Positions 12,635 to 27,180 of a DNA stretch of 64,000 bases are shown piece after piece. The first letter of the stretch is position 1. Each line of letters opens with the position of its first letter. Made by a program: the position numbers and the translations under genes. The notes below the pieces were generated by a model. The model was not told where the DNA came from. It worked only from the letters and a program-made list of their open reading frames with translations, and made no database searches. The DNA comes from Candidatus Latescibacterota bacterium (GTDB taxonomy: Bacteria > Latescibacterota > UBA2968 > UBA8231), in the NCBI GenBank assembly GCA_965217585.1, contig OZ244561.1, forward strand, positions 4,288,001 to 4,352,000, written 5' to 3'.

Positions 12635-13189
12635 ATGGGCCGAACGCCTAAGACCAAAACGGACCTATTGTCCGTCAAGCTCTTCTTTCTCGTCCTAGGG
12701 GCCATTGCCGCCTACAATGTCGTTAATTGGGTGCGCGGCGAACCGGAATGGGAAGAGCGGAGCTATGAGCCGGGGGTCTTCACCGTACAGGTGGCCGGCC
12801 GGCCCAATCTGCGCAAGCTACGCGAGCCGTTGTCCTTCGGCGAGGTAGAGTTCCAATACCTGATGTTCGAGCGCGACGACGTGCAATACGCCGTTGCCTA
12901 TGGGGACGTGCCCGAGACCGTCCCAGCCGATAGTGCGATTGCCGCGCGCCGCGATGCCATCTTGCGGAAGGTGAAGGGGACGATCCTGTCGGAAGCCGCC
13001 GTTGAGATGGACGGGCATTCCGCTTGGCAGACGCAGATACAAGCTGAGGACGAAAGCCTCCTGAGATTGCAGTGCCTACAGGTGGGCCAACGGCTCTACA
13101 GCTTGATGGCGGTCGGAGCACCCTACGCGTTTGACGACCCCTCGGATATCGAGCGGTTTTTCGCGTCCTTCAGGCTCGTCAAGCCCTGA
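12635..13189 (+). CDS. Hypothetical membrane-anchored protein
   Basis: N-terminal hydrophobic helix; C-terminal RFFASFRL; operonic position. Confidence 0.6.
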   Translation: MGRTPKTKTDLLSVKLFFLVLGAIAAYNVVNWVRGEPEWEERSYEPGVFTVQVAGRPNLRKLREPLSFGEVEFQYLMFERDDVQYAVAYGDVPETVPADSAIAARRDAILRKVKGTILSEAAVEMDGHSAWQTQIQAEDESLLRLQCLQVGQRLYSLMAVGAPYAFDDPSDIERFFASFRLVKP

Positions 13190-13205
13190 TGATAAGGAGT
13201 ATCAA

Positions 13206-14255
13206 GTGAAGCTGCTCAAAGAGCTATGCGAAAGTGCGGGGGTTCCCGGCCGAGAGGATCGGCTGCGCGAGATCGTGCGGCGGGAGCTCGCGCCCCTGAC
13301 CGACGAGATGCGGGTGGATGCCTTGGGCAACCTGATCGCTGTGAAGAAGGCGAGCAAGGGCAAAAAGGCCAAGAAGCTGATGATCGCCGCGCACATGGAC
13401 GAGATCGGTTTCGTGGTTTCACACATCGACGAGCGGGGCCTTTTGCGGCTGGTGCCCTTAGGCGGGCACGACCCGCGCAACATGGTGGCCCAAAGGGTCG
13501 TCGTCAGGGGCAAGAAGCGCGATCTACCGGGTTTGCTCTACCCAGGTATTAAACCACCGCACATCCAGACGGCGGCCGACCGCGATGCCAAGTTGGCCAT
13601 CAGCGACTTTATCGTCGATCTCTACCTGGCACCTGCCAAGGTCAAGCGCGAGGTCGAGCTTGGTGCGATGGTGACGTTGCAGCGGGATTTCGCCGAGATC
13701 GGCGACGGAGTTTCCTGTAAGGCCATGGACGATCGGGTTGCGCTCTACGTGATGATCCGCGCCATGCAGCAGGCCAAGACCTTTGGCTGTGAGACCTATG
13801 CGGTGGCCACTGTGCAGGAGGAGGTTGGCTTGCGGGGCGCGCAGGTAAGCGCGTTTGGGGTCGAGCCGGACCTGGGGGTAGCCCTCGACGTGACGCTGGC
13901 GGCCGATATTCCGGGGATACCCGAGCACGAGCAGGTGACGCGCTTAGGGCAGGGCGCAGCGATTAAACTGCTGGACTCGTCGGCGATCTCGCACCCGGGC
14001 TTGGTGGCTCAGCTCAGAGGGCTAGCGAAGAAGAGGAAAATCGAGTGCCAATTGGAAATCCTCCCTCTGGGCGGCACGGACGCCGGTGCCATGCAAAGGG
14101 TCCGTACTGGTGTGCCGGTGGCGACGATTTCAGTGCCGACTCGCTACATTCACACCTCGGTCGAGCTGGTTGACAAAGGCGACTTGCAAGCAGCCGTGGA
14201 TCTGCTGACCGCCTTTCTCGAAGAGGGCCATCGGGCCGACTTGACGCTCGTCTGA
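13206..14255 (+). CDS. M42 family aminopeptidase (TET-like)
   Basis: AAHMDEIG, KAMDDR, VQEEVGLRGA, GGTDAG, RYIHT. Confidence 0.93.
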   Translation: MKLLKELCESAGVPGREDRLREIVRRELAPLTDEMRVDALGNLIAVKKASKGKKAKKLMIAAHMDEIGFVVSHIDERGLLRLVPLGGHDPRNMVAQRVVVRGKKRDLPGLLYPGIKPPHIQTAADRDAKLAISDFIVDLYLAPAKVKREVELGAMVTLQRDFAEIGDGVSCKAMDDRVALYVMIRAMQQAKTFGCETYAVATVQEEVGLRGAQVSAFGVEPDLGVALDVTLAADIPGIPEHEQVTRLGQGAAIKLLDSSAISHPGLVAQLRGLAKKRKIECQLEILPLGGTDAGAMQRVRTGVPVATISVPTRYIHTSVELVDKGDLQAAVDLLTAFLEEGHRADLTLV

Positions 14256-14280
14256 ACGATCCCACCCGCAACGGGATCAT

Positions 14281-15189
14281 TCAGCCGAGAGTGATCCTCA
14301 ATACTGGACACTTCCGTCGAGCTCCGCGGGGAATGATACCGATGACATCGACTTTCGCTCCCATCTGCTCGAACTGCCCATGAATCCTATCGCACATGTC
14401 CATGGCAATTAGTAGGATCAGTCGTCCCGTGTGCTTCATGACGCGTAACAGCTCAGGCAACGAGTCCATGACGGCCTGACGGCAGGAACTCCGGAAGGGC
14501 GGTTCTGTGACGATCAGATCGAAGTGGTCGGTTCGTATTGGCAGATGTCTGGCATCGGCAACTACATACAAGTTCGGAAAGTTCACTGAGAGACCTGGAG
14601 ACAGGCTATCATCGATGTCGGACACGAAGACTGTGAGTCCACGACGTCTCCCTTCAAGGGCAAGCCCGCCAAATCCGGCAAATGGATCCAAGATGACATC
14701 CGTTGGCTTTGGATCAGCGATGTTGAACAGAAACCGGGCATCTAGAGTAGACACGGCTCGATGCCAGTTGTGTCCTGACACAACACGCCTGTCTCCATTC
14801 TGGACGATCTCGAACTTGCGATTGCTCGGGGCATCCGCCAGTAGCGCCTGCTTGTCTTGAACGTAAACCTCTGTCTGGTGCACCTTGTAATCACCAACGC
14901 GAATCCAGCCAAGAAGCCACCGTTCGCTCCGAACGGCAGAGATCTCCTCTCCACGGAAGGGCTCGTAGTGCTGGCCGACGATTGCTTCAGTAAACCCGAG
15001 GTCGCCTGCGAGTGCTGCGACTCGATCAGGAATGAGTGGCAGTTCGATCGACATCCGATGCCGTTCCCGCCGGTCCTTCTTGAGTTCTAGACCAAACCGG
15101 CGGTAGACAGCTAGGAACTCCGTCTTCGCCAACTCGTACGGAATGCCAATTCCTCCACGGCTGGTGCGGAAGTAGATCTCATACTGCAT
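14281..15189 (-). CDS. SAM-dependent amino-methyltransferase (Trm11/UPF0020-like); terminal cassette-like gene
   Basis: ILDPFAGFGG motif I, LIVTEPPF motif IV; composition differs from core genes. Confidence 0.75.
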   Translation of the reverse strand: MQYEIYFRTSRGGIGIPYELAKTEFLAVYRRFGLELKKDRRERHRMSIELPLIPDRVAALAGDLGFTEAIVGQHYEPFRGEEISAVRSERWLLGWIRVGDYKVHQTEVYVQDKQALLADAPSNRKFEIVQNGDRRVVSGHNWHRAVSTLDARFLFNIADPKPTDVILDPFAGFGGLALEGRRRGLTVFVSDIDDSLSPGLSVNFPNLYVVADARHLPIRTDHFDLIVTEPPFRSSCRQAVMDSLPELLRVMKHTGRLILLIAMDMCDRIHGQFEQMGAKVDVIGIIPRGARRKCPVLRITLG

Positions 15190-15284
15190 ATCGCCTCAAT
15201 CCCCGACAGGCCTCAATGCCAATTCTCTCCTTAAGAGCGGATATATCTCAATCTATTCTGGATCAACTCGTTTTGTCCCATGTC

Positions 15285-15427
15285 GCTTAACGTCATGCCG
15301 GTTTGCGAACCTGGCTCTCACCCGAAGGGGCTGGCGCGAGCTTGGCCCTGCAAAGCGAGTGACAGAAGCCAGGTTGCCCGAAGGGCCAAGACGCGAATGT
15401 GCCGCAGCGTAAACTGCGCTGTTAAAT
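15285..15427 (-). repeat. attC-like site A (143 bp)
   Basis: + strand: GCTTAAC-gtcatgc-CGGTTTGCG..CGTAAACTG-cgct-GTTAAAT; internal stem AACCTGGCT/AGCCAGGTT and hairpin GCCC-GAA-GGGC. Confidence 0.8.
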
Positions 15428-15460
15428 GACGTGGGCCAATCCGCGGCAAGATATAACGGG

Positions 15461-16000
15461 CTAAACCTCCTCGGCGAAGTCCGATGAGAGAGCTCCCCGA
15501 AATCCAATGCGTTTGTGCGGATCTCTGTATTGAGTCAATTCGTAATGTCCGATCATGAAGCCTTGGGACTCCCAGAACGTCAGGGCGCTCGGATTGTCGC
15601 GGCGTACATTCAAGTCAATCCGATCGATACCCAAGCCGTCGGTGATTTCTGTTACGGCTTGTACAAGGAATGACCCAATGCCCTCTCGGCGTTGCGCAGG
15701 AACAACGTAGAAGTCATTGATCTTCGCGCTAGTGCCACTAATTGAAAATGAAACAAATCCAACCGGGGACCCTTCGCTGAGGCACCAGAAAATCCTTGGT
15801 TCCGGACTGGAAAGGGGAAACCGATCTGCGAAATACACATCGCGGCGATCCGATGAACGTACTGTATCTGCAGTTGGCATTGTCTCCAACCAGTAGGCGT
15901 CAACTAGTGGCCGAAACCTATCCTCAGCGGAAGGAAGCACCTGCTCGAATTCAAGGCGAACGGTCAAAACTCGTCTCTTCTCATATAAGGCCCATGTCAT
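15461..16000 (-). CDS. GNAT family acetyltransferase (cassette)
   Basis: FYVVPAQRREGIGSFL (motif A), NPSALTFWESQGF (motif B). Confidence 0.85.
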   Translation of the reverse strand: MTWALYEKRRVLTVRLEFEQVLPSAEDRFRPLVDAYWLETMPTADTVRSSDRRDVYFADRFPLSSPEPRIFWCLSEGSPVGFVSFSISGTSAKINDFYVVPAQRREGIGSFLVQAVTEITDGLGIDRIDLNVRRDNPSALTFWESQGFMIGHYELTQYRDPHKRIGFRGALSSDFAEEV

Positions 16001-16040
16001 TTAACAGCTTTCCGGTTTGCGAACCCGGAGCGAAGCGGAG
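15999..16040 (-). repeat. Truncated attC-like site B1 (left arm only)
   Basis: ATTTAAC-agctttc-CGGTTTGCG-AAC; the same 9-mer as sites A and E; no partner arm. Confidence 0.65.
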
Positions 16041-16106
16041 GTATTCTCTCCTGTCTACGGTCCATCCGAACACCTCGTTTAGACACCGGTCTGTCGCGCC
16101 AATTTC

Positions 16107-16242
16107 AGGTAACGTTCCGCGGGTTGCCGATGTGTCCGCACATCAGCAGACAGATCGGGGCTTTCAATCAGTCCAACCCATCGGTTGCGGCCATTTTGGT
16201 TGGGTTATAGTTGGGTTGGGTCTCGGCAACTCGCCGTTATCG
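16107..16242 (-). repeat. attC-like site B2 (136 bp)
   Basis: AGGTAAC-gttccgc-GGGTTGCCG..CGGCAACTC-gcc-GTTATCG. Confidence 0.75.
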
Positions 16243-16329
16243 GCTGTGGCGAAGGGGTGGTTTCGTCACTTTCAGCTCTTGAGATCGGGGCGACAATAGA
16301 GCGTGCACCATAGATTCAGCGTGCTTTGT

Positions 16330-16964
16330 TCATTTTGTCAGCACCGGTTTTCGCAAAGTGAAAGACTGGAAGTGCACGCCCTAGGGCTCGACTACGTGGA
16401 AATCCAAGACATCGAAATACTCCCGTACATATCCATGCATCTGATCGTCGGTTCGAAAAGAAAAAAATCGAGGAGGATCGTGCCAGTCGTTAGGCGCTTC
16501 GCCCTCAAACGGGTCACCCCCGTACACGCCCAAAAAAAAGAGACCGCCTGGAACTAAGACGTTTCGGATAGCAGCCAGTACGTCAGATAAATTGACATTC
16601 GGGACATGAAGCAGGCAATTCATTGCATAGACTGCGTCGAAAGAACTCAGGGGAAAGCCCAAATTTAGAAAGTCAGCCGGGTAGCCACGAGACCTTTAGC
16701 GCGGCAGCGTGCAACCATTTCCGGTGAAAGATCAGTCACAACTGTTTCTAACCCACCTTTCTGGAAAAACAAGCCATCCTGACCTGTCCCGGCACCGATC
16801 TCCAGAAGACTCACCTTACCCTCGGTGCGTACGATACTGAGAAAGTCTGCACGCTCAGTCAGCTTCCACGGGGCTTTCTCACGCTGATCGCGTTCTCCTG
16901 CGCTACCGTCATAGGCTACTTGAAGACGAGCGACGACATCTTTGTACTCGAACATTGCTTCCAT
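16330..16964 (-). pseudogene. Class I SAM methyltransferase, disrupted (frameshift plus in-frame TAG)
   Basis: LLEIGAGTG in 16665-16964; a frame change near 16684 continues as YPADFLNLGFPLSSFDAVY; past the TAG at 16381-16383 the frame continues GVHFQSFTLRKPVLTK to TGA at 16330. Confidence 0.8.
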
Positions 16965-17088
16965 TCATTGACCCATTGATTCAGCCTGCCCAAATATCAT
17001 AAGCGAATGTGATTACGATAATGAATGAATAGACGTCTTTGCTACTGCACGCTTTAACGCTTTTTCTGGGTGGGGTTGGGGCGATTGC

Positions 17089-17152
17089 CGATAACGGTCC
17101 CGCCGTGCGCGAACTGCCGGAGGCAGTTGGGCGAAGGCCCTCGTGGCCTGAG
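17089..17152 (-). repeat. Truncated attC-like site C (left arm plus internal hairpins)
   Basis: CGATAAC-ggtcccg-CCGTGCGCG-AACTGCC-gga-GGCAGTT-GGGCGAAGGCCC; right arm missing. Confidence 0.7.
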
Positions 17153-17210
17153 CAAGAAAGATAAGTCTGGATCCAAGCTACAACCTTCTGTTCTGTGACT
17201 CCGGGCTGGC

Positions 17211-17293
17211 GGCTAACGATTTGCCGTGCCCGAACCGTGTAGCGGTTGGGCGAAGGCGCCCAAGCGCCAAAGCCGGGCACGGACGTGTTACCG
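17211..17293 (-). repeat. attC-like site D (83 bp)
   Basis: GGCTAAC-gatttg-CCGTGCCCG-AACCG..CGGTT-..GGCGC-ccaa-GCGCC..CGGGCACGG-acgt-GTTACCG. Confidence 0.82.
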
Positions 17294-17303
17294 GAAATGA
17301 ACA

Positions 17304-17813
17304 CTAACACGAGCGCTCGAGAAGTTTACGCATACGAGGCCGATGGATCTCTACGAACCAGGGGTCCAGAAAAGGCAAATACTCGAGCTGCCGGGAATCC
17401 GGAAGGAAAAAGAAGTCGCACTTATGACGTCGTCGGCAATTGGACGCCCCGCATTGACACTCCCAAACATCACCGTCAACCGCGTTCAACGAGTAGTCAA
17501 AGAAGAGTTCCTCGTTCGGACAAATATCGCGCATTGCCAATACGAACCGCTGCCTAAAAACAGAATACACGAAAACATTTGGATCGCAGGAGTGGTTAAA
17601 GAAGCCTGCGGGCTTTTGCATTAGCACCGTCGTGCCATCCGGTAGCCAGTCTCGGTGGATCGGATCTTCGCCCAATTCTGGCCTGAGCGGGTGTTCCTCG
17701 TCAACGACGCGGGTATCGTCGATTCGGTGAATGACCTCGCACCGGCGTATATAGGCCGTGGAAAACACGCCATAGCCGTGTAACGTTGATTTTTTCACAA
17801 CAACCTTGCTCAT
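17304..17813 (-). CDS. SET-domain lysine methyltransferase with post-SET cysteines (cassette)
   Basis: HGYGVFS, FFNHSCDPN, EELFFDY, CQCGASNCR. Confidence 0.9.
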   Translation of the reverse strand: MSKVVVKKSTLHGYGVFSTAYIRRCEVIHRIDDTRVVDEEHPLRPELGEDPIHRDWLPDGTTVLMQKPAGFFNHSCDPNVFVYSVFRQRFVLAMRDICPNEELFFDYSLNAVDGDVWECQCGASNCRRRHKCDFFFLPDSRQLEYLPFLDPWFVEIHRPRMRKLLERSC

Positions 17814-17842
17814 TTCTTGACAGCAGTTGGTTAGTTCGTTTC

Positions 17843-17931
17843 AGGTAACGTATTGCCGGTTTGCGAACCGCGGAGCGGTTACCGGAGGCCAAGGCGCCAT
17901 CGGCGCCGCAACGCAAAACGCGCTGTTATCG
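17843..17931 (-). repeat. attC-like site E (89 bp)
   Basis: AGGTAAC-gtattgc-CGGTTTGCG-AACCGC-gga-GCGGTT..GGCGCC-atc-GGCGCC..CGCAAAACG-cgct-GTTATCG. Confidence 0.82.
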
Positions 17932-17988
17932 GCAGTCGCCTTCGCAGCCCGTCCTCGAGAGGAGGCGTGGGGTGCGCAAACGAGAACT

Positions 17989-18007
17989 CGCAAACCGAGT
18001 GTTGCCT
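17989..18007 (-). repeat. Orphan right arm of an attC-like site
   Basis: CGCAAACCG-agt-GTTGCCT; the 9-mer is the exact complement of CGGTTTGCG; lies just after the NUDIX stop. Confidence 0.55.
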
Positions 18008-18014
18008 CGGTTGC

Positions 18015-18554
18015 TTACTCCTTCAATAGGCCAGCAGCAATGAGAGCGCGATGGTGCAGGGGTAGAAAAACGTCCAGCGCCAACTCCCCAAGGACTCCTT
18101 CAGGTTGAACCAGTTTGCGCGCCAGCGTCTCGTGTTCGGGCACCCACTCATTGAGCTCGACTCTCGCTAGCCAGATCGAGCGCACGAGCACTAGACCCTT
18201 TTCGTGCCCCCTGATGCACTCTCCGCGGGAGAATCCCAGAAGCTTTGCCTCTCTGACCTCAACGCATGCTTCCTCTCTCATCTCCCGCCGCAGGGTTTCC
18301 TCCCACGACTCGCTTCCTTCCGGTCTGCCTGCCGGGAATCCCCACGTTTCCCCATCTTGCGTAGCCAACACGACCTCGCCGTTGTCTGTCAAGCAAATAC
18401 CACCAGAGCCGTGGCGTTGCCCTTCCGGCACATCGTGAGAAGGAAACCAAGTGACGAGAACATCCTGTCCTCCCGTTTCTACCAGAAATGCTTCGTATTC
18501 CCTTGCTGGCCCTGATGCCTCAGACATCCATTGCCCTCTTTGGAATGTGATCAT
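18015..18554 (-). CDS. NUDIX hydrolase (cassette)
   Basis: Nudix box GRPEGSESWEETLRREMREEAC. Confidence 0.9.
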   Translation of the reverse strand: MITFQRGQWMSEASGPAREYEAFLVETGGQDVLVTWFPSHDVPEGQRHGSGGICLTDNGEVVLATQDGETWGFPAGRPEGSESWEETLRREMREEACVEVREAKLLGFSRGECIRGHEKGLVLVRSIWLARVELNEWVPEHETLARKLVQPEGVLGELALDVFLPLHHRALIAAGLLKE

Positions 18555-18599
18555 GAGATGTGCTCCAATTTGCGTCCATTTCGTCCACCACCTGCACCG

Positions 18600-18668
18600 C
18601 TATAACCCAGTCGTTTTTGTCGGGAATGGGAAAGTCGGCGAGGGGAGCGTGACCGGTCTGATATTCCC
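18600..18668 (-). repeat. Degenerate attC-like site F (left arm only)
   Basis: CTATAAC-ccagtcg-TTTTTGTCG has the same spacing to the CG, then GGGAAT..ATTCCC; abuts the stop of the FlgD-domain gene. Confidence 0.45.
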
Positions 18669-18671
18669 CGT

Positions 18672-20843
18672 TCAGTATGCTACAGCGACGGGCTGCAGGC
18701 GGATCTCACTGCCCTTATCCGTCTCTACTTCCACCCGCGCCAGATAGATGCCAGGGCCGACCAGCTGTCCGGCTCCATCCCGACCGTCCCAGCGGGCCGT
18801 ATGGCGCCCCGCGGCCTGAGCCTCTGGCTGCGCCTGCCATACCCGCCGTCCGTCCAGGGCATAGATGCCGACCTTTACCTCGGACGCCTGCTGCACCCGG
18901 AACAAGGTATACTGGATGGATAACTGGTCGTTGACGCCGTCCCCCTGAGGGGTAAAAGCGCGGCTCCCCACCTCGAGATCCCCCAGAACTCCCCTTGCCG
19001 CGGAGGCCGACGCCACCACCACCAGCTGGTTGGAACCAAGCTCCTCGCTGACATCACCGCCTTCGACCCGCTGCAACAAGCTCTGTTCCCCGCGGTTGAA
19101 GACCTCCCCTCCGAACTCGCCGGCCTCGTCGTAGAGCACCGTTTCCAGCCCAATGCGCAGCCGCTGATCGCCCTCCGGACTCAAGCGGCGGGGCAAAAAT
19201 ACAACAAAACCGCTTTCCTCGTTCACGATGCTGTCCGGTTCCACGGCGCCCAGGGGCTCACCTATCTCCAGCCAGCCGAACTCCGCTTCCGCCGGCGTCA
19301 TGACCCGCACGACGTCGAAGCCGGTGCGATCCGCGCTGGAAAATTCAACGCCAATATCGTATACGAACGACTTTTTCTCGCCCGCCGGCACGCGAACTCG
19401 CCCGCCCTGCGGCTGGTGATTTTCCTCCAGGACCACCTCGCCCACGACCCGATCCGCCAACAGCGGCGCGATCTCGATCTGCAGCGAATCCAGCCGGGCA
19501 AAGTCAAAGAACGCATCCGTCTCTAGCTGCACCCGCAGCTGAAAGTAGCGCCCCCACGGCAGGCGCGGGTGCTGCCCCGACTCCTCGAGTGGCACCGACC
19601 AGAAACTCCAGTTTTTCAGATCCTCGACCACCGGCCCTCGGAATCCCACCGCCGGCACCGTGGCGCCGCGCGCCTCCAGTCTAGATATGGAACTGATCAA
19701 GGTCGCCCTCGGCACGGAGGAAGTCAGCCGTTCCCACTGTTTCTTGGTCACCTCCACGTGGGCTCCCAGATCGTCAAAGCCGAAGTAGGCCGTCGGAGTG
19801 TCGTCGCGACCCGTCCTGATCTCCACCTGGACGCGAACCGGCCCGTCCTCGAGGGCGACCAACTGCTCCCCGTCCTTGCGCCACTTGCTCACCTCGAAGA
19901 CCACTCGCCCGAAGTTGACCTCCCGCCCCAGGTCCACTATCTGCGACTCCCAGGTCGCCGTAGGCGCAAAACCCCGGCCGTAGACCTCCATCTCCGCATA
20001 AGCCGACTGGACGACGATCGGCTGACCGTCCAAAGTGACTCCGTCGGGGACTTCCAGCAGGCGCAAATAGCGCAAATTCTGCAGCGGGAAGCGGACCTCG
20101 GTGACGCTGTCGCGGTTGGCTTGGCGGTAGGCTAGCTGATTTTCCAGCGGGCAGCAGAAGCCCGCCCCGCGCCATCTGAAGCCCCGCTCCATCTCCTCTT
20201 CCATTATACCTCCCTCGTCCTGGCGGGCTGTCAGGCTGAATAATTTGAGGACATAGTTGGGACGAAAGGGCTGGTCGCTGTCGGGGCTCACCCCCTCGGG
20301 AGGGTAGAACACAAAGCGCTCCACCGGCACCTGCGCGCCCATATCTATCGTGTAATAGAAAGACGACCCCAATGGTGGGCGGCTGCGCCGGTCGGCGACC
20401 TCGTCCCTGCGCTCGACGTAGGTGGCGGGATCGCCGTCGACGAAGACGAGGAGGTCGGCCTGGTACAAAATGCCATAATTCCCCAGGTTCTCGTCGCGGC
20501 TCTTCAATAGAAAGTTGCCGTGTCCCAGCCACAAACGCGGATGACCCGGGTGGTAAACCGGGTCGAAGGTGAACCTGAAGGGCTGCCAGGGTCCCAACCG
20601 AGGCAAGAGGTTCTCGTCCGGCTTGAGTTCGAAAGGCTGGAGCGCCCCGGCGGCGGTCGAGTCGTCCGTCATCAGGCTGAAATCCGCTACTTCCGTCCAG
20701 GAAACGCCGCCCTCTCCTCCGAGCCGCCACCAATTTTCTTGGGCCGCCCCATGGCTGCAAAACCCTGCAATCCCACACAGCACGGCAAAGGCCAAAATCG
20801 CCACTTTCGCGTTTATGCGCACCCGAACATCAGGAATCCACAA
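18672..20843 (-). CDS. Secreted protein with C-terminal FlgD Ig-like domain
   Basis: Signal-like N terminus (AAQ-ENWW); C terminus FTPQGDGVND..IYALDGRRV..WDGRDGAGQLVGPGIYL. Start uncertain. Confidence 0.8.
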   Translation of the reverse strand: MWIPDVRVRINAKVAILAFAVLCGIAGFCSHGAAQENWWRLGGEGGVSWTEVADFSLMTDDSTAAGALQPFELKPDENLLPRLGPWQPFRFTFDPVYHPGHPRLWLGHGNFLLKSRDENLGNYGILYQADLLVFVDGDPATYVERRDEVADRRSRPPLGSSFYYTIDMGAQVPVERFVFYPPEGVSPDSDQPFRPNYVLKLFSLTARQDEGGIMEEEMERGFRWRGAGFCCPLENQLAYRQANRDSVTEVRFPLQNLRYLRLLEVPDGVTLDGQPIVVQSAYAEMEVYGRGFAPTATWESQIVDLGREVNFGRVVFEVSKWRKDGEQLVALEDGPVRVQVEIRTGRDDTPTAYFGFDDLGAHVEVTKKQWERLTSSVPRATLISSISRLEARGATVPAVGFRGPVVEDLKNWSFWSVPLEESGQHPRLPWGRYFQLRVQLETDAFFDFARLDSLQIEIAPLLADRVVGEVVLEENHQPQGGRVRVPAGEKKSFVYDIGVEFSSADRTGFDVVRVMTPAEAEFGWLEIGEPLGAVEPDSIVNEESGFVVFLPRRLSPEGDQRLRIGLETVLYDEAGEFGGEVFNRGEQSLLQRVEGGDVSEELGSNQLVVVASASAARGVLGDLEVGSRAFTPQGDGVNDQLSIQYTLFRVQQASEVKVGIYALDGRRVWQAQPEAQAAGRHTARWDGRDGAGQLVGPGIYLARVEVETDKGSEIRLQPVAVAY

Positions 20844-21825
20844 GGCTTTTTAATCCACTTTCCAAGTCATCCAGCCATTGCGGCGTTTTGGGGTGAAAGG
20901 CTCCCAACACTTCCCAGAACCAGCACAAACCGGCACCCATGGTGGCTTGTCTGACTTTAAGGTACGTCTCATCTGGTTCTATCCGCACTCCACCTGCCTC
21001 CGCATACCCCGCCCAAAACTCCTGCGGATAGTGATCGCGACCATAAATTTCTTGAGGTTCTCGGGTAAACTCTGCTGCGACATGCAGTTGTTCATGTAGA
21101 AGGTCGCCAGTCGCTCCATTCTCAAAATCGTGAATGCCGACTATATGGCCATCATCATCAACCAAAAGATTGTGTATAGTTGCATCTCCCCATAGAAGCC
21201 CTTGAGGACTCGGATTCGGCACGACATCAATCTTGTCCAGAAGATCTTCGATAATGGGCAACTTGGCTTGACAATCTTCTGGCAGGTCGGCTACCAAGTC
21301 CTGATTGTAAAGGAGCTTTCTCCGTATGTCTTCTCGCCATTGGGTCATATCCTGCACGGGCAGAAGACCGTCGGATACTCTCTGTTCATTGATGGCAGCG
21401 ACCACTGAGCCAAATTCTTTGAGCAGGCGACACCGCCGATCATCGCTAGTACTGGGCATCTCGAAAAAGTCTCGTCCTTGAGTACCGGGGAGCAGACTAG
21501 AAATCAGATAAGGATATCCGAACGCATCGGTGTCCTCGCATAATACACTGATCTCCGGGACGGGCAGAGTGGTTGTATCGCGTAACAATGCGGTAATATT
21601 GAAATCGACCGCTAGCGAGAAGGCTTTTCGATACTTGATCTTGATCACATAGCTGCCGTCGCAACACACTGCCTTGTAGACACAGTTGGTTGGATTTGCT
21701 TCAAGTTCAGTCCATTCGATAACCGAGCCTAGCCCCTGTCTAGCAAAAGCCACTGCTCCCTGCTCAGCAGTAAAGGTCGGCTTTGCCTTGGAGGCTTCTA
21801 TAAATGCTTGCTTGCTGATCGCCAA
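20830..21825 (-). CDS. Aminoglycoside phosphotransferase/choline kinase-like protein (cassette)
   Basis: YVIKIK, Brenner-like LLWGDATIHNLLV, GIHDFE. Confidence 0.75.
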   Translation of the reverse strand: MAISKQAFIEASKAKPTFTAEQGAVAFARQGLGSVIEWTELEANPTNCVYKAVCCDGSYVIKIKYRKAFSLAVDFNITALLRDTTTLPVPEISVLCEDTDAFGYPYLISSLLPGTQGRDFFEMPSTSDDRRCRLLKEFGSVVAAINEQRVSDGLLPVQDMTQWREDIRRKLLYNQDLVADLPEDCQAKLPIIEDLLDKIDVVPNPSPQGLLWGDATIHNLLVDDDGHIVGIHDFENGATGDLLHEQLHVAAEFTREPQEIYGRDHYPQEFWAGYAEAGGVRIEPDETYLKVRQATMGAGLCWFWEVLGAFHPKTPQWLDDLESGLKSLVDS

Positions 21826-21892
21826 ATCTACGCTCTGATATACTGTAACTTTCTTGATGTGCTAACTGATGTGCGCAAGGATCTCATTTTTC

Positions 21893-21980
21893 GCGTAACG
21901 TTCCCGGCACCCACGAACCTGCCGAAGGCGGGTTGGGCGGAGGGCCGTATGGCCCGAAGCCGTGGGTGCTCGTGTTACAC
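21893..21980 (-). repeat. attC-like site G (88 bp)
   Basis: GCGTAAC-gttcccg-GCACCCACG-AACCTGCC-gaa-GGCGGGTT..GGGCC-gtat-GGCCC..CGTGGGTGC-tcgt-GTTACAC; the sulfotransferase TAA lies in the core. Confidence 0.85.
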
Positions 21981-22718
21981 GCTGACCGTGGTCCGACTCG
22001 GGCTTCCTTGATCTTTAGATGTCAGAGATTCCTCAAACCTACTCAGGCCTTCTTTGAACGTAGGACCGTAGGCCTCTTTCTTCTGTTCCAGACAGTCCGC
22101 GGCTTCCCGATACCTGGTATAGTCATCCTCGTTCAGAGCTCTGAACCCCTGGATTATCCTGTCCTCCAGGTTTGGCATTTGGTATTCTCCTTCGTTTTTC
22201 GGACAGAAGGGAATCCACGACCACTGAAACTGCCAATACATCAGAAAGACAGATTCATTGAATCTGTCCGTCAGACCAACGAAGTCGAACTCGCGGACAC
22301 CGCGTCCACCTCTCTTGAGCCACTTTGTGAAGCGATTATGATTATATCCGGGAGGATTCGGCCACTGGAACTCCTGATCGTGAGTCAACCATTCCGCGAG
22401 GCCTTTGTCATCGAAATGAGGTTCAGAACTATCGGCGGACCTTTTTCGAGTGTGGTGATACATCGAAATCGCCGACTCAAGTGGGTCCCTCAGAAAGGTC
22501 AGCCAAATGCAGTTCTCGTAAGATGTAATAAGACCAGTGAAGCGGTCAAGAACGCTGTGACCGTGAAGGCAGACTGGATTCTCTACGATAGGATCTTCCG
22601 GATGGTCATCATAAGTTCTCTGAAGCCGGGACCCAAACCGTGCCTCTAGAATTGAGGCCAGAGTGCTCCCACCCGTCTTTGGAATGTGTATGCTCACATA
22701 GAGCGGTTCTTTCGGCAC
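21975..22718 (-). CDS. Sulfotransferase family 2 protein (cassette)
   Basis: 5'-PSB motif IHIPKTGGST, 3'-PB motif TFLRDPLESAISMY, FDFVGLTD, LNEDD..Y. Confidence 0.85.
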   Translation of the reverse strand: MPKEPLYVSIHIPKTGGSTLASILEARFGSRLQRTYDDHPEDPIVENPVCLHGHSVLDRFTGLITSYENCIWLTFLRDPLESAISMYHHTRKRSADSSEPHFDDKGLAEWLTHDQEFQWPNPPGYNHNRFTKWLKRGGRGVREFDFVGLTDRFNESVFLMYWQFQWSWIPFCPKNEGEYQMPNLEDRIIQGFRALNEDDYTRYREAADCLEQKKEAYGPTFKEGLSRFEESLTSKDQGSPSRTTVSV

Positions 22719-22787
22719 GGAGAGTCCCCTATGGGTTGGTGCTCAATAAACCGGTGGCCGGGACCCGTAGTTCAGACCACGGTTTGC

Positions 22788-22881
22788 GTGTAACGGCCTC
22801 ACCATTTACGACCCCGCGCATGCGGGGTGGGCGGTAGCCCCAAGCGCCATATGGCGCGCAGCGTAAATGGATGTGTTAGAT
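22788..22881 (-). repeat. attC-like site H (94 bp)
   Basis: GTGTAAC-ggcctca-CCATTTACG-ACCCCGC-gcat-GCGGGGT-GGGC-ggta-GCCC-caa-GCGCC-atat-GGCGC-gcag-CGTAAATGG-atgt-GTTAGAT. Confidence 0.85.
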
Positions 22882-23211
22882 GAAGTGAGCTCTTCATATA
22901 TGATATTACAAATGGGGCCGGTCAGCTCGATACGTTACCTGATGCCGGATTGCGCTGTCGGTCAACGCGCCGAGGGGAGGCATATCCAAAAAGAAGAAAA
23001 CGACCATTCGAGGCGCGATACTATGGGGTAACAGGCAGTGACAGTGTGCCCCAATTGCTTCCCGTCACTCGTCGATCCGATGTCGAAGTTCCTTGACGCG
23101 CGTGTCTTGCCGACCGCCGAAATAGAGTTCACTCTCTCATACGGGCCGTCAACCAGGTTGTAGAGCCCGTGCTCGCTGGCTCGGCGTCCATCCAGAACCC
23201 CGTCGAAATTC

Positions 23212-24657
23212 TCACTCGCAGAACTGAAATGCGTAGAGCTTCGCGTCGCGCATGATGAAGCGTATCCTGACCGGTTGGCCGGCGAGTTGGCGAAGGTCGC
23301 CAGCGGGCCACGAAACGGGCAGCCTGACGGAATTGCCGACGTGCCATATTGAATCTGCGCCACTATACCCCTCAAGCGGACTTCCGTCTTCGGCGAGTAG
23401 TTCAACGCGCACGCTGCCTCCGGCGGCTGTGTCGACATTGAGTTTGAGGCGCGATCCGTCGAATATCAGCGCCGGTGTGGTGAACTTGCCCCCTTCGTAA
23501 GGGGCGTCGAGCGAAACAAAGCCGTCCAGGCGCATGACCGCCCGCCCGATGCCGCCGATGTGCTCGCCGTTGGCTGCATCGGTGCGACCCGCCCGGTCGT
23601 AGTTGATGCCGGCATAGTAAAACCAGATTTCGTCGCCCATCACAATCGGGTTGGGCAGGGCCCAAATCTGGCGCGAATCGAAACGACCATCGGGACCCGG
23701 GCGCATAAAGGCCTGGCGCTGGCCGCAGCGCACAAAGGTTTTGGTGTCGCGACTGAAGGCCAAACGCACGTCGCGCGTACCCGGCGCTCTCGCGGCGCCC
23801 TTGCCCGTCGGAATCCAGTGCCAGAACGCCTGCGCCAGCATGATGGTGATATCCGGGGCTTCTGAGTAGCGGAAGACGGTGGCGCCATAGAAGTCCACTG
23901 GCGGATCGTCGGATTCTGTTGGGTACAAGCCGCGATCCAGTTCGTCGGGCCACATGGCCAGGCCGGTATTTTCAATGTCCTTCAGGTCGGTCATTTCGGC
24001 GCGTCGCACGCTGCGAAAGCGGGCGTCGATCTCGGCCGTCGGCGTTTCGTCACTGCGCAGTTTGTGGCGGCCAAAAAACAGATAGCGCTGCAATGGCTCA
24101 TCCCAATAGACTATCGTCTGCGTATCCTTGGCGCCCTTCGGATCGATCTCGGCCCAGAGGGACCAGTGTATCCCGTCCGGCGAACTGAACATGTGAAACT
24201 TGCCGGACGGGTAGACCTTGGCCTGCGTCTTGTAGCGCTGCTCTTCCGGCGCCTGCGGATCAATCCATACCGAGGCGCCGCCGATGACGCCCGGCAAAAC
24301 GACGTTATTGTCCTGCGAGCCCCGCTTCTCGTGCAGACCCAGATGCGGCTTGACGAAGTGAATGCCGTCCTGCGATTCGGCATAACACACGCAGCGCTCG
24401 TGGTCGAAGGGGCCATCGCCCGTGGAGGTCAACAGATCATACCAGAGGCGCACGCGGCCATCGGCCTCCTTGAGGATACTGGACAACAAGTAGACCTCTC
24501 CGCCCACCTCCCATTCCCTGTCCGCCGTTAGCAATAATTCGCCGGTCGGGTACGGAGCATTCATGGTCAAGGCCACATTGTGCTTGCGCTCGACGAGCAT
24601 TTCATCGACAAACAGTTGTTTGCGCGATCCGATGCGAATAGTGGATGTAGTTTTCAT
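23212..24657 (-). CDS. Hypothetical glycoside-hydrolase-like beta-propeller protein
   Basis: Asp-box-like ESQDGIHF, SPDGIHW; C terminus MRLDGFVSL..RIRFIMRDAKLYAFQF. Confidence 0.65.
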   Translation of the reverse strand: MKTTSTIRIGSRKQLFVDEMLVERKHNVALTMNAPYPTGELLLTADREWEVGGEVYLLSSILKEADGRVRLWYDLLTSTGDGPFDHERCVCYAESQDGIHFVKPHLGLHEKRGSQDNNVVLPGVIGGASVWIDPQAPEEQRYKTQAKVYPSGKFHMFSSPDGIHWSLWAEIDPKGAKDTQTIVYWDEPLQRYLFFGRHKLRSDETPTAEIDARFRSVRRAEMTDLKDIENTGLAMWPDELDRGLYPTESDDPPVDFYGATVFRYSEAPDITIMLAQAFWHWIPTGKGAARAPGTRDVRLAFSRDTKTFVRCGQRQAFMRPGPDGRFDSRQIWALPNPIVMGDEIWFYYAGINYDRAGRTDAANGEHIGGIGRAVMRLDGFVSLDAPYEGGKFTTPALIFDGSRLKLNVDTAAGGSVRVELLAEDGSPLEGYSGADSIWHVGNSVRLPVSWPAGDLRQLAGQPVRIRFIMRDAKLYAFQFCE

Positions 24658-24672
24658 CTCCTGAACTCCGTC

Positions 24673-26091
24673 CTAGGCCCTGAGCCACGCCTCCGTCATT
24701 TCCCGTTCCACATCGCTCCACCCGGGCAGAATCCCGGCCATGGCTTCTTCGTACGCCGTAGGCCCGATCTCCTCCCGCCACGCGGAGAAGGACGCTTTGT
24801 CATAGGCCTTCGCCCTGGCATCGATCGCTTCGTAGTCGACGATTTCCCGCAGTTTGCGATCCATCTCCCCAGCGAGCTCGGGCCGCTTTGTCGCAAGATC
24901 CTCGACCTCCTCCGGATCTTCTGCGAGATTGAACAACTGCAGGGCGTATCCGGCGTAGGCGACGTACTTCAAATCGCCCTGTCGCAACATAAATTCGCCG
25001 GTGTTGGCGAATCGGCTGTGGTACTGGCACAGCACTCGGTCCGGTCGATCCGCCCGTTTGCCGACTAGTTCGGGCATCAGCGACACGCCGTCCAGGTCAT
25101 CCGGCGTATCGAGTTCGGCCATGTCCATAAACGTCGGATAAAGGTCTACCAAGGACACCAGCGCATCGACCTCGTGCCCCGCGCGTACATCCGGGCCGGC
25201 GACGATCAGCGGCACGCGAGCGGACGCCTCGTACATCGCGTTTTTCAGATGTTGGCGATGTTCCATATTCATCTCGCCGTGATCGCTGGCGAACAGTACA
25301 TAGGTGCTGTCCATTAGCCCGAGCCGATCGACCGTGGCCATCACCTCACCTACCATCTCGTCGACTTCCGTCACCATCGCGAAATACGTGCGCCGCACCG
25401 TGCGAATTTCGTCTTCGGTGAACGGATCGGCGCAGCCCTTGGTCGCGCACATGTAGTCCACCACGGGATGCAGATGGGCCTCATACGGTGGAATGGTCAC
25501 TGCGTCGGGGTCAATTCTGTCGAGATAGTATTGCGAGGAGACGAAAGCGGGGTGCGGACAATCCAAACTGCAGTGCAGGATGAAGGGTCGGTCGTCCGCC
25601 TGGCGCGTCTCCAGGTAGGCGATGGTGTCCTCGACCTTAGCCCAGTCGCGCTGGTGTACGCGACGCTCATCCGTTGCGATGTGCTTCAGGCCCGGAAGCG
25701 GTCCGGTGCTGCGCGATAGCCGGATGTTGGCCGCGCGGGTCCAGGACGATATTCGATTGTGCAGTGAATGGCGGCCTGACAGGTAATCCGTCTTGCCGTA
25801 GGCCTGGTGGATATAGCCCGCGTCCTCCAGGTCGGAGACATAGGTTCGCTCGTCCGGCTCGAGCCCCTTATAATTGTTCCATCCTTCGATGACGTGGGTG
25901 TGCTTGCCGCTCCAGCGACTGGAGCGCGACGGGCAACACTGGGGAGAGCTGCAATAGGTGTTGCGGAACAGAGCGCCGCGCTCCGCCAGATGGTCCAGGT
26001 GCGGCGTCTTCACCGCCGGATGGCCGACGCACCCCATCGCGCGCCCGTCCATGCTGTCGCACTCGATGAACAGGATGTTCCGCTTGCTCAT
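24673..26091 (-). CDS. Sulfatase (Cys-type FGly; choline-sulfatase/ARSK-like)
   Basis: CCPSRSS (CxPxR), ASDHGE, MYEASARVPLI, LFNLAEDPEE. Confidence 0.92.
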   Translation of the reverse strand: MSKRNILFIECDSMDGRAMGCVGHPAVKTPHLDHLAERGALFRNTYCSSPQCCPSRSSRWSGKHTHVIEGWNNYKGLEPDERTYVSDLEDAGYIHQAYGKTDYLSGRHSLHNRISSWTRAANIRLSRSTGPLPGLKHIATDERRVHQRDWAKVEDTIAYLETRQADDRPFILHCSLDCPHPAFVSSQYYLDRIDPDAVTIPPYEAHLHPVVDYMCATKGCADPFTEDEIRTVRRTYFAMVTEVDEMVGEVMATVDRLGLMDSTYVLFASDHGEMNMEHRQHLKNAMYEASARVPLIVAGPDVRAGHEVDALVSLVDLYPTFMDMAELDTPDDLDGVSLMPELVGKRADRPDRVLCQYHSRFANTGEFMLRQGDLKYVAYAGYALQLFNLAEDPEEVEDLATKRPELAGEMDRKLREIVDYEAIDARAKAYDKASFSAWREEIGPTAYEEAMAGILPGWSDVEREMTEAWLRA

Positions 26092-27143
26092 GGCGTCGTC
26101 GGTGCGTCCTCGCTCGGATCCCAGATGGTCGCCGCGATGTGCTGCTGGGGATGCTCGGCGCTATTGAAGTAGTAGATCGTCACGAGCTTACCGTCCGGTC
26201 TTACGACCATGCGCGGATAACCCATGTCTCCGTACTGCGCCCCGTCACGGATCGCGATCTCTTCACCCCACTGGGTCCCGTCAGGGGACGTGAATCGGGC
26301 GCGTATCCCGCTCTGTTTGCCTGCCCGGTAGCCGTAGGCGCACACGAGGCGTCCGTCGGCGAGGCGGACCAAAGCCGGCGGATTGCCGTTGGAGGGGAGG
26401 TCGGGCGGGTGGGTGGCGGCGACCTTGCCCAAGAAGCGCCAGGAGACGCCGCCATCGACCGATTCGGCCGAGTCGATCCAGCTATTCTTGACGAATTCTC
26501 CATCGACCTCCAGGTCCCGGCGGCGGCGCATGGCGCTGACGAGGTGCCCCTCGCCGACGCGCACCGTCGAGGGCATGACCGAACGCGTATCGGGCGGCTC
26601 GGGAAGCATCCAGGCGACGAAGGAGAAGCTCTTGCCGCCGTCGTTCGTGCGGGCGCAGAACGCCCTATCCCGGAGCCCCGCCATCACCTGTGGGGCCCGC
26701 ACCGACAGGAAGAACAGGCACTCGTTCTCGCCGAGGACGAGATAGTCGGTGCGGGATGTGAGCTGCTCGGAGAAGCCGAAATCCGGGAAAAGGTACGGCC
26801 CCCGCCAGGAGCGACAGCGATCGTAGGAGACGAGGAGGCGGTTGGCAGAGCAGCGGATCGCCAGATTGGGGTGGGTGAAGTCGATCGCCTCGGCCGGAAT
26901 CGGTTCCGCCGCCATATTATAGCTGGCCGCTTCTTCCCGCTGCCAACTCTCGCCCCCGTCGCGGCTGCGCGAAAGGGCTGGGAAGGATGGTTGCTCACCA
27001 CTGATTCGGTGGCCCTGTTCCTTGAACTCGTAGGCACCGTTCGTATAGCCAACGACGATCTCGTCCGCCCAGCTCCATACCCCATCGTTGGCCGGCCAGC
27101 CCAGGAATCGGCCTTCCTCTCTGGCTACGATAATATGCTTCAT
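26088..27143 (-). CDS. BNR/Asp-box (sialidase-like) protein
   Basis: SRDGGESW, SYDRCRSW, TNDGGKSF, SVDGGVSW, SPDGTQW; DMGYP. Confidence 0.8.
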   Translation of the reverse strand: MKHIIVAREEGRFLGWPANDGVWSWADEIVVGYTNGAYEFKEQGHRISGEQPSFPALSRSRDGGESWQREEAASYNMAAEPIPAEAIDFTHPNLAIRCSANRLLVSYDRCRSWRGPYLFPDFGFSEQLTSRTDYLVLGENECLFFLSVRAPQVMAGLRDRAFCARTNDGGKSFSFVAWMLPEPPDTRSVMPSTVRVGEGHLVSAMRRRRDLEVDGEFVKNSWIDSAESVDGGVSWRFLGKVAATHPPDLPSNGNPPALVRLADGRLVCAYGYRAGKQSGIRARFTSPDGTQWGEEIAIRDGAQYGDMGYPRMVVRPDGKLVTIYYFNSAEHPQQHIAATIWDPSEDAPTTP

Positions 27144-27180
27144 GAGACGACCTTCATGATGGCGTACGGGGATAAGAAGA

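Follow-up and report, generated by a model that had tools for sequence, protein, structure and literature searches.

Attachment sites of a separate attC-type plan in an integrase-less cassette array of a Latescibacterota bacterium, and a neighbouring integron-like recombinase in its relatives

Results

Six full sites and two half-sites among genes of one direction

The window, by which we mean the whole stretch of DNA analysed (64,000 nucleotides, positions 4,288,001 to 4,352,000 of contig OZ244561.1, assembly GCA_965217585.1, from Candidatus Latescibacterota bacterium), contains between positions 15288 and 22878 of its + strand six full sites of the form TAAC...GTTA (A, B2, D, E, G and H) and two half-sites (B and C2), set among genes that are all read from the − strand. 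These are very probably attC-type recombination sites of gene cassettes in an array without integrase, i.e., a cluster of attC sites without an integron integrase (CALIN). All sizeable open reading frames (ORFs) between the sites, seven in number and of unrelated families, lie on the − strand, which is therefore the top strand, the + strand being the bottom strand; on the − strand a site comes after each gene.

Site A (15288-15424, + strand, 137 nt), the bottom-strand attC of an acetyltransferase cassette, follows the plan TAAC-N7-CGGTTTGCG...CGTAAACTG-N4-GTTA around a long, branched interior, and matches R1, a covariance model built from related sites, at 38.5 bits (E 8e-8). Half-site B (16002-16040, +) consists of a 5' arm alone, TAAC-AGCTTTC-CGGTTTGCG-AACC..., for which window scans with either perfect or G.T-tolerant stems found no complementary 3' partner. 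Site B2 (16110-16239, +), with N7/N3 spacers, has a 4-nt 5' bulge and no 3' bulge; its arms pair over 11 continuous bp, one G.T among them, and it is absent from the R1 matches at E 0.1 or better. Half-site C2 (17092-17170, +; TAAC-GGTCCCG-CCGTGCGCG-AACTGCC...) is truncated and has no 3' arm, and one more isolated TAAC stands near it at 17055. The remaining sites, all on the + strand, are D (17214-17290, 77 nt, N6/N4, R1 67.4 bits), attC of a SET-domain cassette; E (17846-17928, 83 nt, N7/N4, 64.5 bits), attC of a NUDIX cassette; G (21896-21977, 82 nt, N7/N4, 79.3 bits), attC of the cassette of a 247-aa protein; and H (22791-22878, 88 nt, N7/N4, 64 bits), the upstream-most of the array.

An earlier note on this DNA had given the spacers as N7/N4 in A, E, G and H, N6/N4 in D and N7/N3 in B2, and reading of positions 14800-23400 together with the scans bears this out; the stem sequences quoted there are also correct. 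Its picture of a paired, bulge-free 9-bp stem holds as regards bulges but not fully as regards pairing, which includes two G.T pairs in A and is incomplete in E owing to one G.A mismatch.

A scan for this geometry (TAAC-N5-8-stem of at least 8 bp...-N3-5-GTTA, G.T pairs allowed) gave 5 matches in the window against a mean of 0.22 (maximum 2) in 50 mononucleotide shuffles, and a scan for perfect stems recovers D, G, H and B2; site E is missed by both because of its mismatch. Across the whole genome (G000; 7.32 Mb, one contig) the geometry scan returned 12 matches, of which 5 are those of the window, 4 belong to the same family at other places and 3 are unrelated. R1, from which the interior hairpins were left out because MAFFT shifts them by one column between subfamilies, identified 22 sites in five clusters over the same genome, 5 of the 22 lying in the window, within 7.6 kb. 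A 24-nt pattern common to A, B and E occurs at 80 loci in public genomes, 68 of them from Latescibacterota/Latescibacteria records.

Folded anatomy and covariation of the sites

The N7/N4 spacer is itself structured. Naming the 5' spacer bases u1-u7 and the 3' spacer bases v1-v4, with v1 adjoining the stem, u6-v3 and u7-v2 pair to form a covarying 2-bp helix and leave v1 unpaired. Among 44 distinct N7/N4 arm sets, u7-v2 is paired in 39 (G-C 21, C-G 15, A-T 2, G.T 1), u6-v3 likewise in 39 (C-G 22, G-C 14, wobble 3) and u1-v4 in all 44 (G.T in 41), as against 1-9 of 44 in shifted registers taken as controls. Both u7-v2 and u6-v3 are Watson-Crick pairs in 32/44 arm sets; 2000 shuffles averaged 14 and did not exceed 24. 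The helix occurs as CG/CG, GC/GC, GG/CC or with A-T at one of its two pairs; the switch between CG/CG and GC/GC largely tracks two site lineages, and the independent events are few, perhaps three or four. The unpaired v1 is A in 21 arm sets, T in 14, G in 5 and C in 4.

The consensus structure of 58 related sites (RNAalifold) opens with an R box of 5 pairs; 4 nt then bulge out of the 5' arm, and 2 bp, a single unpaired 3'-arm nucleotide and 9 bp follow. In this alignment 97.3% of the cells are paired versus 77.0% in shuffled controls and 31-44% with the partner slid by 1-3 columns, and changes on both sides are seen in 10/16 pairs overall, which agrees with the stem covariation that the earlier note had read from the window. 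An inner paired box of the L'/L'' type is present, the 9-bp stem being 96% paired, with two-sided changes in 10/11 pairs of the helix; the 58 rows were chosen by a scan requiring a 9-bp stem, so that this helix is pre-selected, whereas the 2-bp helix was no criterion.

The 80 loci supplied 106 oriented sites. In 91 of these the first loop consists of a 5'-arm bulge alone (2-4 nt, 0 opposite), and the same bulge, on the AAC-bearing arm, is found in window sites A, B2, D, E, G and H. A 1-nt 3'-arm bulge comes next in 58/106 sites, while about 15/106, B2 being of that kind, have no unpaired 3'-arm base before the junction. The folds contain no second extrahelical base: 9 uninterrupted bp lead to the junction. 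In DNA minimum-energy folds a short hairpin starts immediately behind the CG and a three-way junction comes after it, which reproduces the branched interior and the AACC..GGTT hairpin of the earlier description. The idea that the TTCT bulge forms a pseudoknot with the GAA/GGA loops, considered by eye only, was dropped for want of a consistent register.

Folding of both strands, which the earlier note had proposed as a check, gave a more stable fold for the + strand in 48/58 sites, the site interior being G-rich and T-poor on that strand; it also revealed one extrahelical base on the 3' arm, while the second base of canonical sites is absent. The claim that the sites have no extrahelical base therefore stands for the bulge-free stem and for the second base, but not for v1: in A, D, E, G and H this base is left extrahelical on the 3' arm, which faces the AAC arm and is the one that bears the extrahelical bases of canonical bottom strands. 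All 58 aligned sites, and all six sites of the window, have TAAC and GTTA unchanged. The 7-nt cores, said to break RYYYAAC/GTTRRRY, are indeed degenerate: RYY-TAAC is found in 11/58 and GTTA-RRY in 18/58, and the outer flanks are paired in only 28-34 of 58.

Comparison with canonical attC and with IntI-linked sites of the phylum

Canonical attC sites, as described in Nivina 2016 (PMC5027507), carry AAC on the bottom-strand R', an unpaired central spacer of 5-6 nt per arm, and 2-3 extrahelical bases opposite the AAC arm (position 16, sometimes 20, and 23/24), the first and the last separated by a 6-bp stem; branched terminal structures occur in chromosomal integrons according to the same source. 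The sites of the window share with canonical attC (class 1 cassettes and the Vibrio cholerae repeats, VCRs, of Vibrio) a bottom-strand hairpin that folds better than the top strand, an R box with AAC/GTT, an L stem and a variable terminal structure (branched here), as well as their position at the 3' end of a promoterless gene, the single direction of the genes and cassette ends at G|TT. They depart from canonical attC in three respects. Of the spacer bases (7 versus 4 nt), 4 bulge out of the AAC arm and others form 2 bp, where both arms of canonical sites have 5-6 nt unpaired; extrahelical bases number one, placed about 4 nt closer to GTT, or none, instead of two or three with their 6-bp spacing; and only TAAC/GTTA is conserved of the 7-nt cores. 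Counted from AAC, the point facing the first extrahelical base is 7 nt away in this class and 8 nt away in canonical sites, and the stretch of the 3' arm from GTT to the first extrahelical base is about 4 nt shorter.

The integron integrase IntI scores above the TIGR02249 cut-off in 17/168 genomes of the phylum (274-488 bits). Since a contiguous-stem AAC..GTT scan yields mostly noise at IntI-linked loci and is blind to bulged canonical sites, repeat finding and folding were used there instead. In the IntI-adjacent sites of two loci (L113 and L110) the R box gives way to a 2x1 loop and then to two helices, of 5-6 bp and about 6 bp, each of them ending in a 3' bulge; this canonical two-bulge fold is adopted by six or seven of the 8 folded sites in L113 and by 2/3 in L110. 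The canonical plan therefore coexists in the phylum, and the plan of the window is that of a separate class, no member of which was found at the 5 IntI loci examined.

Cassette genes between the sites

The gene and site layout is that of integron cassettes. From the downstream end, and always on the − strand, the first gene (15461-16000) encodes a GNAT acetyltransferase of 179 aa (Pfam PF00583, E 8e-16), whose ATG start overlaps the GTTAAATG of the next site (R' of B). It is followed by the cassette gene of a class I methyltransferase (16381-16964), frameshifted after about 96 codons, with an intact ortholog in a related locus (L016; DNA 97.7% identical). Next come a SET-domain protein of 169 aa (17304-17813; PF00856, E 1e-14), a NUDIX hydrolase of 179 aa (18015-18554; PF00293), and a secreted protein of 723 aa (18672-20843) with a FlgD_ig / CHU_C C-terminus (type IX secretion) and a 5' end truncated by fusion to the following gene, an APH-family phosphotransferase of 331 aa (20830-21825; PF01636, E 3e-16). 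The last cassette gene (21975-22718) encodes a 247-aa protein of no Pfam family, and its TAA stop lies within the R'' TAAC of site G. Two ORFs of 158 and 481 aa, overlapping in different frames and without Pfam family, occupy 22962-24657 (−) immediately upstream of site H; they may be one frameshifted gene, of a cassette or of the chromosomal flank.

Mobility, turnover and decay of the array

Several cassettes recur elsewhere, some with a boundary at TAAC. The APH cassette (20810-21902) has 97% identical copies in two related loci (L064 and L016), and at its right end the three sequences agree through TAACGTT and then continue into a different attC in each context. The NUDIX cassette with site E (17846-18545) has a second copy of 94.9% identity in the same genome at 3.29 Mb (G000 3291209-3290509), the similarity beginning exactly at the T of TAAC. 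The GNAT cassette region (15372-16026) is likewise duplicated in this genome (G000 618955-619609, 96.5% identity), and an 88% identical copy of the SET-domain cassette, with its own site, is found in L079. The same locus, beside an M42 peptidase gene, carries arrays of other cassette content in three genomes of the genus (G134, G142 and G151) and no array in two others (G136 and G145).

Signs of decay in the array are its two half-sites, the frameshifted gene and the fusion of two cassettes. The APH and 723-aa cassettes are separate elsewhere, lying 6.4 kb apart in L064 and about 2 kb apart in G142 (L203); since they are separate in L064, the fusion junction at 20808-20810 reflects a deletion of one attC, that of the APH cassette, and of the first codons of the 723-aa gene.

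Two further observations concern the surroundings of the array. Compared with L205 of G145, the stretch 14257-27168, from the M42 peptidase gene to 27168 and comprising the array together with sulfatase and BNR-repeat genes, is replaced there by about 2.9 kb, so that the variable segment may be larger than the attC array. The M42 peptidase gene itself (13131-14255, +) is matched in more than 10 same-genus genomes only over its first 60-100 nt, or over its first and last roughly 100 nt, a pattern suggesting that, at the border of the variable locus, the inner part of the gene has been lost or replaced more than once.

An insertion-less relative of IntI beside such arrays in other genomes

A CALIN is defined in Cury et al. 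2016 (PMC4889954) by at least two clustered attC sites with no integron integrase nearby or in the genome. The window contains no integrase gene, and the whole genome yields no TIGR02249 match above the cut-off, the best pieces reaching 84 and 43 bits. Five genomes rich in such sites have no IntI past the cut-off; in three of them a gene matching TIGR02249 in two pieces (model positions 1-178 and 235-315) adjoins the array. Its product, a tyrosine recombinase of 301-312 aa with domains PF13495 and PF00589, scores 230.7 and 239.6 bits, under the TIGR02249 cut-off of 265, and finds its best solved relative in VchIntIA (2a3v; E 2.5e-45). Residues 190-208 of the recombinase face residues 178-238 of VchIntIA, i.e., 18 residues versus 60, and the 31+10 alignment columns left empty are filled in 14/14 aligned IntI of the phylum. 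It resembles IntI (TIGR02249, VchIntIA 2a3v) in its aligned catalytic motifs, in a gene divergent from the cassettes and in a TAAC junction upstream of that gene, and differs from it in having no insertion of roughly 41 residues, in its score below the cut-off and in its place outside the IntI clade. In a quick maximum-likelihood tree, IntI forms one clade (support 99) and the insertion-less proteins stand beside it and are not nested within it, the two groups together being apart from Xer-like proteins (SH-aLRT 93). A tblastn search of the present genome with the insertion-less recombinase gave at most 34% identity.

This recombinase lies beside the site class described here in at least 11 genomes and 5 metagenome contigs. 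Members at least 79% identical to the L089 protein occupy an array end in 7 genomes, on the bottom-strand side and divergent from the cassettes, the nearest site being 0.65-1 kb, or up to 5.8 kb, away; in L042, nine sites precede the recombinase gene. More distant members are co-directional with the cassettes in four genomes (G092, G104, G063 and G076). At the 80 loci of the 24-nt pattern, insertion-less recombinases were found within 10 kb at loci from 7 genomes, and IntI at none. R1 sites number 8-29 in each of 7 sampled genomes of the array-linked clade, and any are listed in only 3/17 IntI genomes. A metagenome scan, going past the reference genomes of the phylum and based on an alignment of distant insertion-less members, returned 80 loci, five of which gave R1 matches with E below 0.01; on these five contigs (43-48% G+C) all recombinases are without the insertion, and the sites have the 5' bulge present and the 3' bulge mostly absent.

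An attI-like junction and its copies

Upstream of the recombinase gene an alignment of about 230 nt can be made across seven loci, preceded by unrelated cassette sequence, and the alignable stretch begins abruptly at TAAC in 6/7 loci and at TATC in the seventh. Judged by this alignment, such a start is what an attI crossover point would look like.

A simple reading with one attI is nevertheless weakened by copies of this platform that have no recombinase gene. They are present in 10 or more places of the present genome (70-82% identity over roughly 200 nt), all outside the window, near C1 positions 611152, 620174, 1778568, 2167794, 2187597 and 2189404 and further near 3276559, 3284588, 3290473, 3327730 and 3445943, as well as in arrays of relatives, where two copies in L080 keep only the first few recombinase codons. 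The copies sit inside other attC clusters and are oriented to match; those that were read adjoin the start of a − strand gene, which in several precedes the TAAC or TATC junction, and two copies end with an attC-like 3' arm and GTTA. The copies may descend from platforms since lost, act as mobile promoter units or stem from recombination of an unusual kind. No platform remnant was found beside site H, the nearest copies being elsewhere in the genome.

Searched against Rfam, the L042 region of the platform and first cassette matched no known RNA family, apart from one spurious hit. After the TAAC junction, at L042:13530-13570 and in the aligned loci (A1 columns 177-215), lies a perfect palindrome, ATGCGAACC-N3-GGTTCGCAT (CGAAC-N5-GTTCG), a possible counterpart of the GAAC/GTTC-type LexA box or, alternatively, a candidate double-strand binding site of the recombinase. 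To the left of the shared APH cassette, at L064:10040-10097 and L016:7215-7269, a short palindrome GTAACTGCTTGTTAC is found whose first 11 bases are the start of the attI-like platform, and which may be a collapsed or hybrid site.

Discussion

On balance, although with appreciable reserve, we favour a reading in which the insertion-less recombinase found in relatives is the cognate enzyme of the sites described here. Judged from the sequences compared, the + strand would fold and recombine as the bottom strand, with crossover at 5'-AA|C-3' in the 5' TAAC. The folded site would present, from the outside inwards, the R box TAAC(G)/(T)GTTA, a pyrimidine-rich bulge of 3-4 nt confined to the 5' arm and a covarying 2-bp helix, after which one 3'-arm base is usually extrahelical; the uninterrupted 9-bp stem, with CG at its end, then leads to a three-way junction. 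The cognate enzyme would probably not be a classical IntI, but an integron-like tyrosine recombinase without the additional I2 domain of IntI, inserting cassettes at an attI-like TAAC adjoining its own gene. As the present genome encodes neither IntI nor the insertion-less enzyme, its array would be a stranded or trans-serviced store, now decaying.

Several points tell against this assignment. For the same reason, that this genome has neither recombinase, it rests on neighbourhood in other genomes, and many genomes hold such sites without an insertion-less gene; in G103, 27 R1 sites occur together with a true IntI located elsewhere, no insertion-less gene reaches E 1e-25 or better, and IntI may act in trans on such sites. 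The insertion-less family is very broad, with at least 7900 matches at E 1e-30 or better among 8000 scored candidates, and its genes can be multi-copy: six equal copies are present in G046, some in or near attC clusters, and in G047 a 314-aa insertion-less gene, of which the genome holds three equal copies, lies 400 nt downstream of a true IntI (L102 / L111, C1:2493564-2495712), so that some members may belong to other mobile elements landing in arrays. The tree is a quick version with the root assumed on the Xer side. The extrahelical base is not universal among the 106 sites, and the site geometry is partly selected for, the sites having been gathered by a geometry scan and a model built from that scan.

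Some of these points are equally those of the strongest alternative, in which the sites are ordinary attC within the spread of chromosomal integrons, moved by a classical IntI, and the insertion-less genes are unrelated passengers or parts of other mobile elements. The attC-like features of the sites (conserved AAC/GTT, a G.T beside the R box, one extrahelical base on the correct arm and a branched terminus) fit this explanation, as do the true IntI that accompanies many R1 sites in G103 and G104 and the multi-copy insertion-less genes of G046 and G047. We nevertheless regard it as unlikely, albeit as a serious contender, given that no IntI lies within 10 kb at the 80 pattern loci, among which loci from 7 genomes have an insertion-less gene; that both folded IntI-linked arrays contain a different class of site, with two extrahelical bases, and sites of the window class occur at 0/5 IntI loci; that variable sequence gives way to conserved sequence at TAAC next to the insertion-less gene in 6/7 loci; and that the pairing of site and insertion-less recombinase recurs in 5 unrelated metagenome contigs.

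The explanation given in the earlier note, namely sites devoid of any extrahelical base with strand choice by a wholly new rule, appears improbable as written. It draws on the bulge-free 9-bp stem and on B2 and the roughly 15/106 sites without an unpaired 3'-arm base, a condition that most metagenome sites share; in A, D, E, G and H and in 58/106 related sites, however, a 3'-arm base is set off by the covarying 2-bp helix, and the R box, the place of crossover and the cassette layout all obey integron rules. What does stand from that note is the more general proposal of a folded single-strand substrate of the attC kind with non-canonical geometry, which the predicted spacer and bulge plan, differing from that of Nivina 2016, supports. 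Different recognition rules for these sites are plausible, and gain indirect support because the neighbouring recombinase in relatives is without the IntI insertion that accommodates extrahelical bases. Finally, intergenic palindromes of a different nature (REP-like elements, terminators or miniature transposons) are a most improbable explanation even though the repeats are intergenic, G+C-rich and hairpin-forming, as their TAAC/GTTA ends are invariant and their stems covary, gene-plus-site units with breaks at TAAC are common to several genomes, one locus varies in array content among relatives, and the repeats adjoin a tyrosine recombinase in those relatives.

The favoured reading, with an insertion-less cognate enzyme, touches on what is held to define an integron integrase. 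An additional domain near patch III, specific to IntI, is taken as its hallmark in Cury 2016 (PMC4889954, citing Messier and Roy 2001), and this I2 domain is described as necessary for integron recombination (Escudero 2016, PMC4792948; Ghaly 2022; Neron 2022) and as accommodating the extrahelical bases of attC (Escudero 2016). IntegronFinder discards recombinases without the IntI-specific region, and a few such recombinases near attC sites were judged not to be IntI, as stated in Cury 2016. In the literature within reach, which did not extend to bioRxiv supplements and most subscription journals, we found nothing on cassette arrays run by insertion-less IntI relatives, on this site plan or on integrons of Latescibacterota.

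A more far-reaching proposal, which we put forward tentatively and hold to be slightly less probable than its contrary, is that of a second, unrecognised integron-like lineage, in which recombinases that group with IntI, and that never had I2 or lost it early, take up and shuffle cassettes in whose folded sites a bulge on the AAC arm marks the strand, in place of the two extrahelical bases recognised by I2. The I2-attC interaction is reported in Escudero 2016 to suppress normally the reactions at the L box, and, more speculatively, the platform copies within arrays might be a trace of such L-box reactions. If this second lineage exists, I2 and the canonical extrahelical bases would be a matched pair, not a requirement for single-strand cassette recombination, and standard tools would file such integrons as integrase-less clusters.

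Regardless of the link to an enzyme, covariance models of attC would need a model for this class of site, and cassette turnover is documented here at one chromosomal locus among integrase-less close relatives. If the link to the recombinase is true, the I2 domain would be dispensable for cassette recombination in general, part of the environmental "integrase-less" clusters could be complete systems that have been misread, and the insertion-less enzymes would provide a living, bench-testable intermediate between Xer-like enzymes and IntI.

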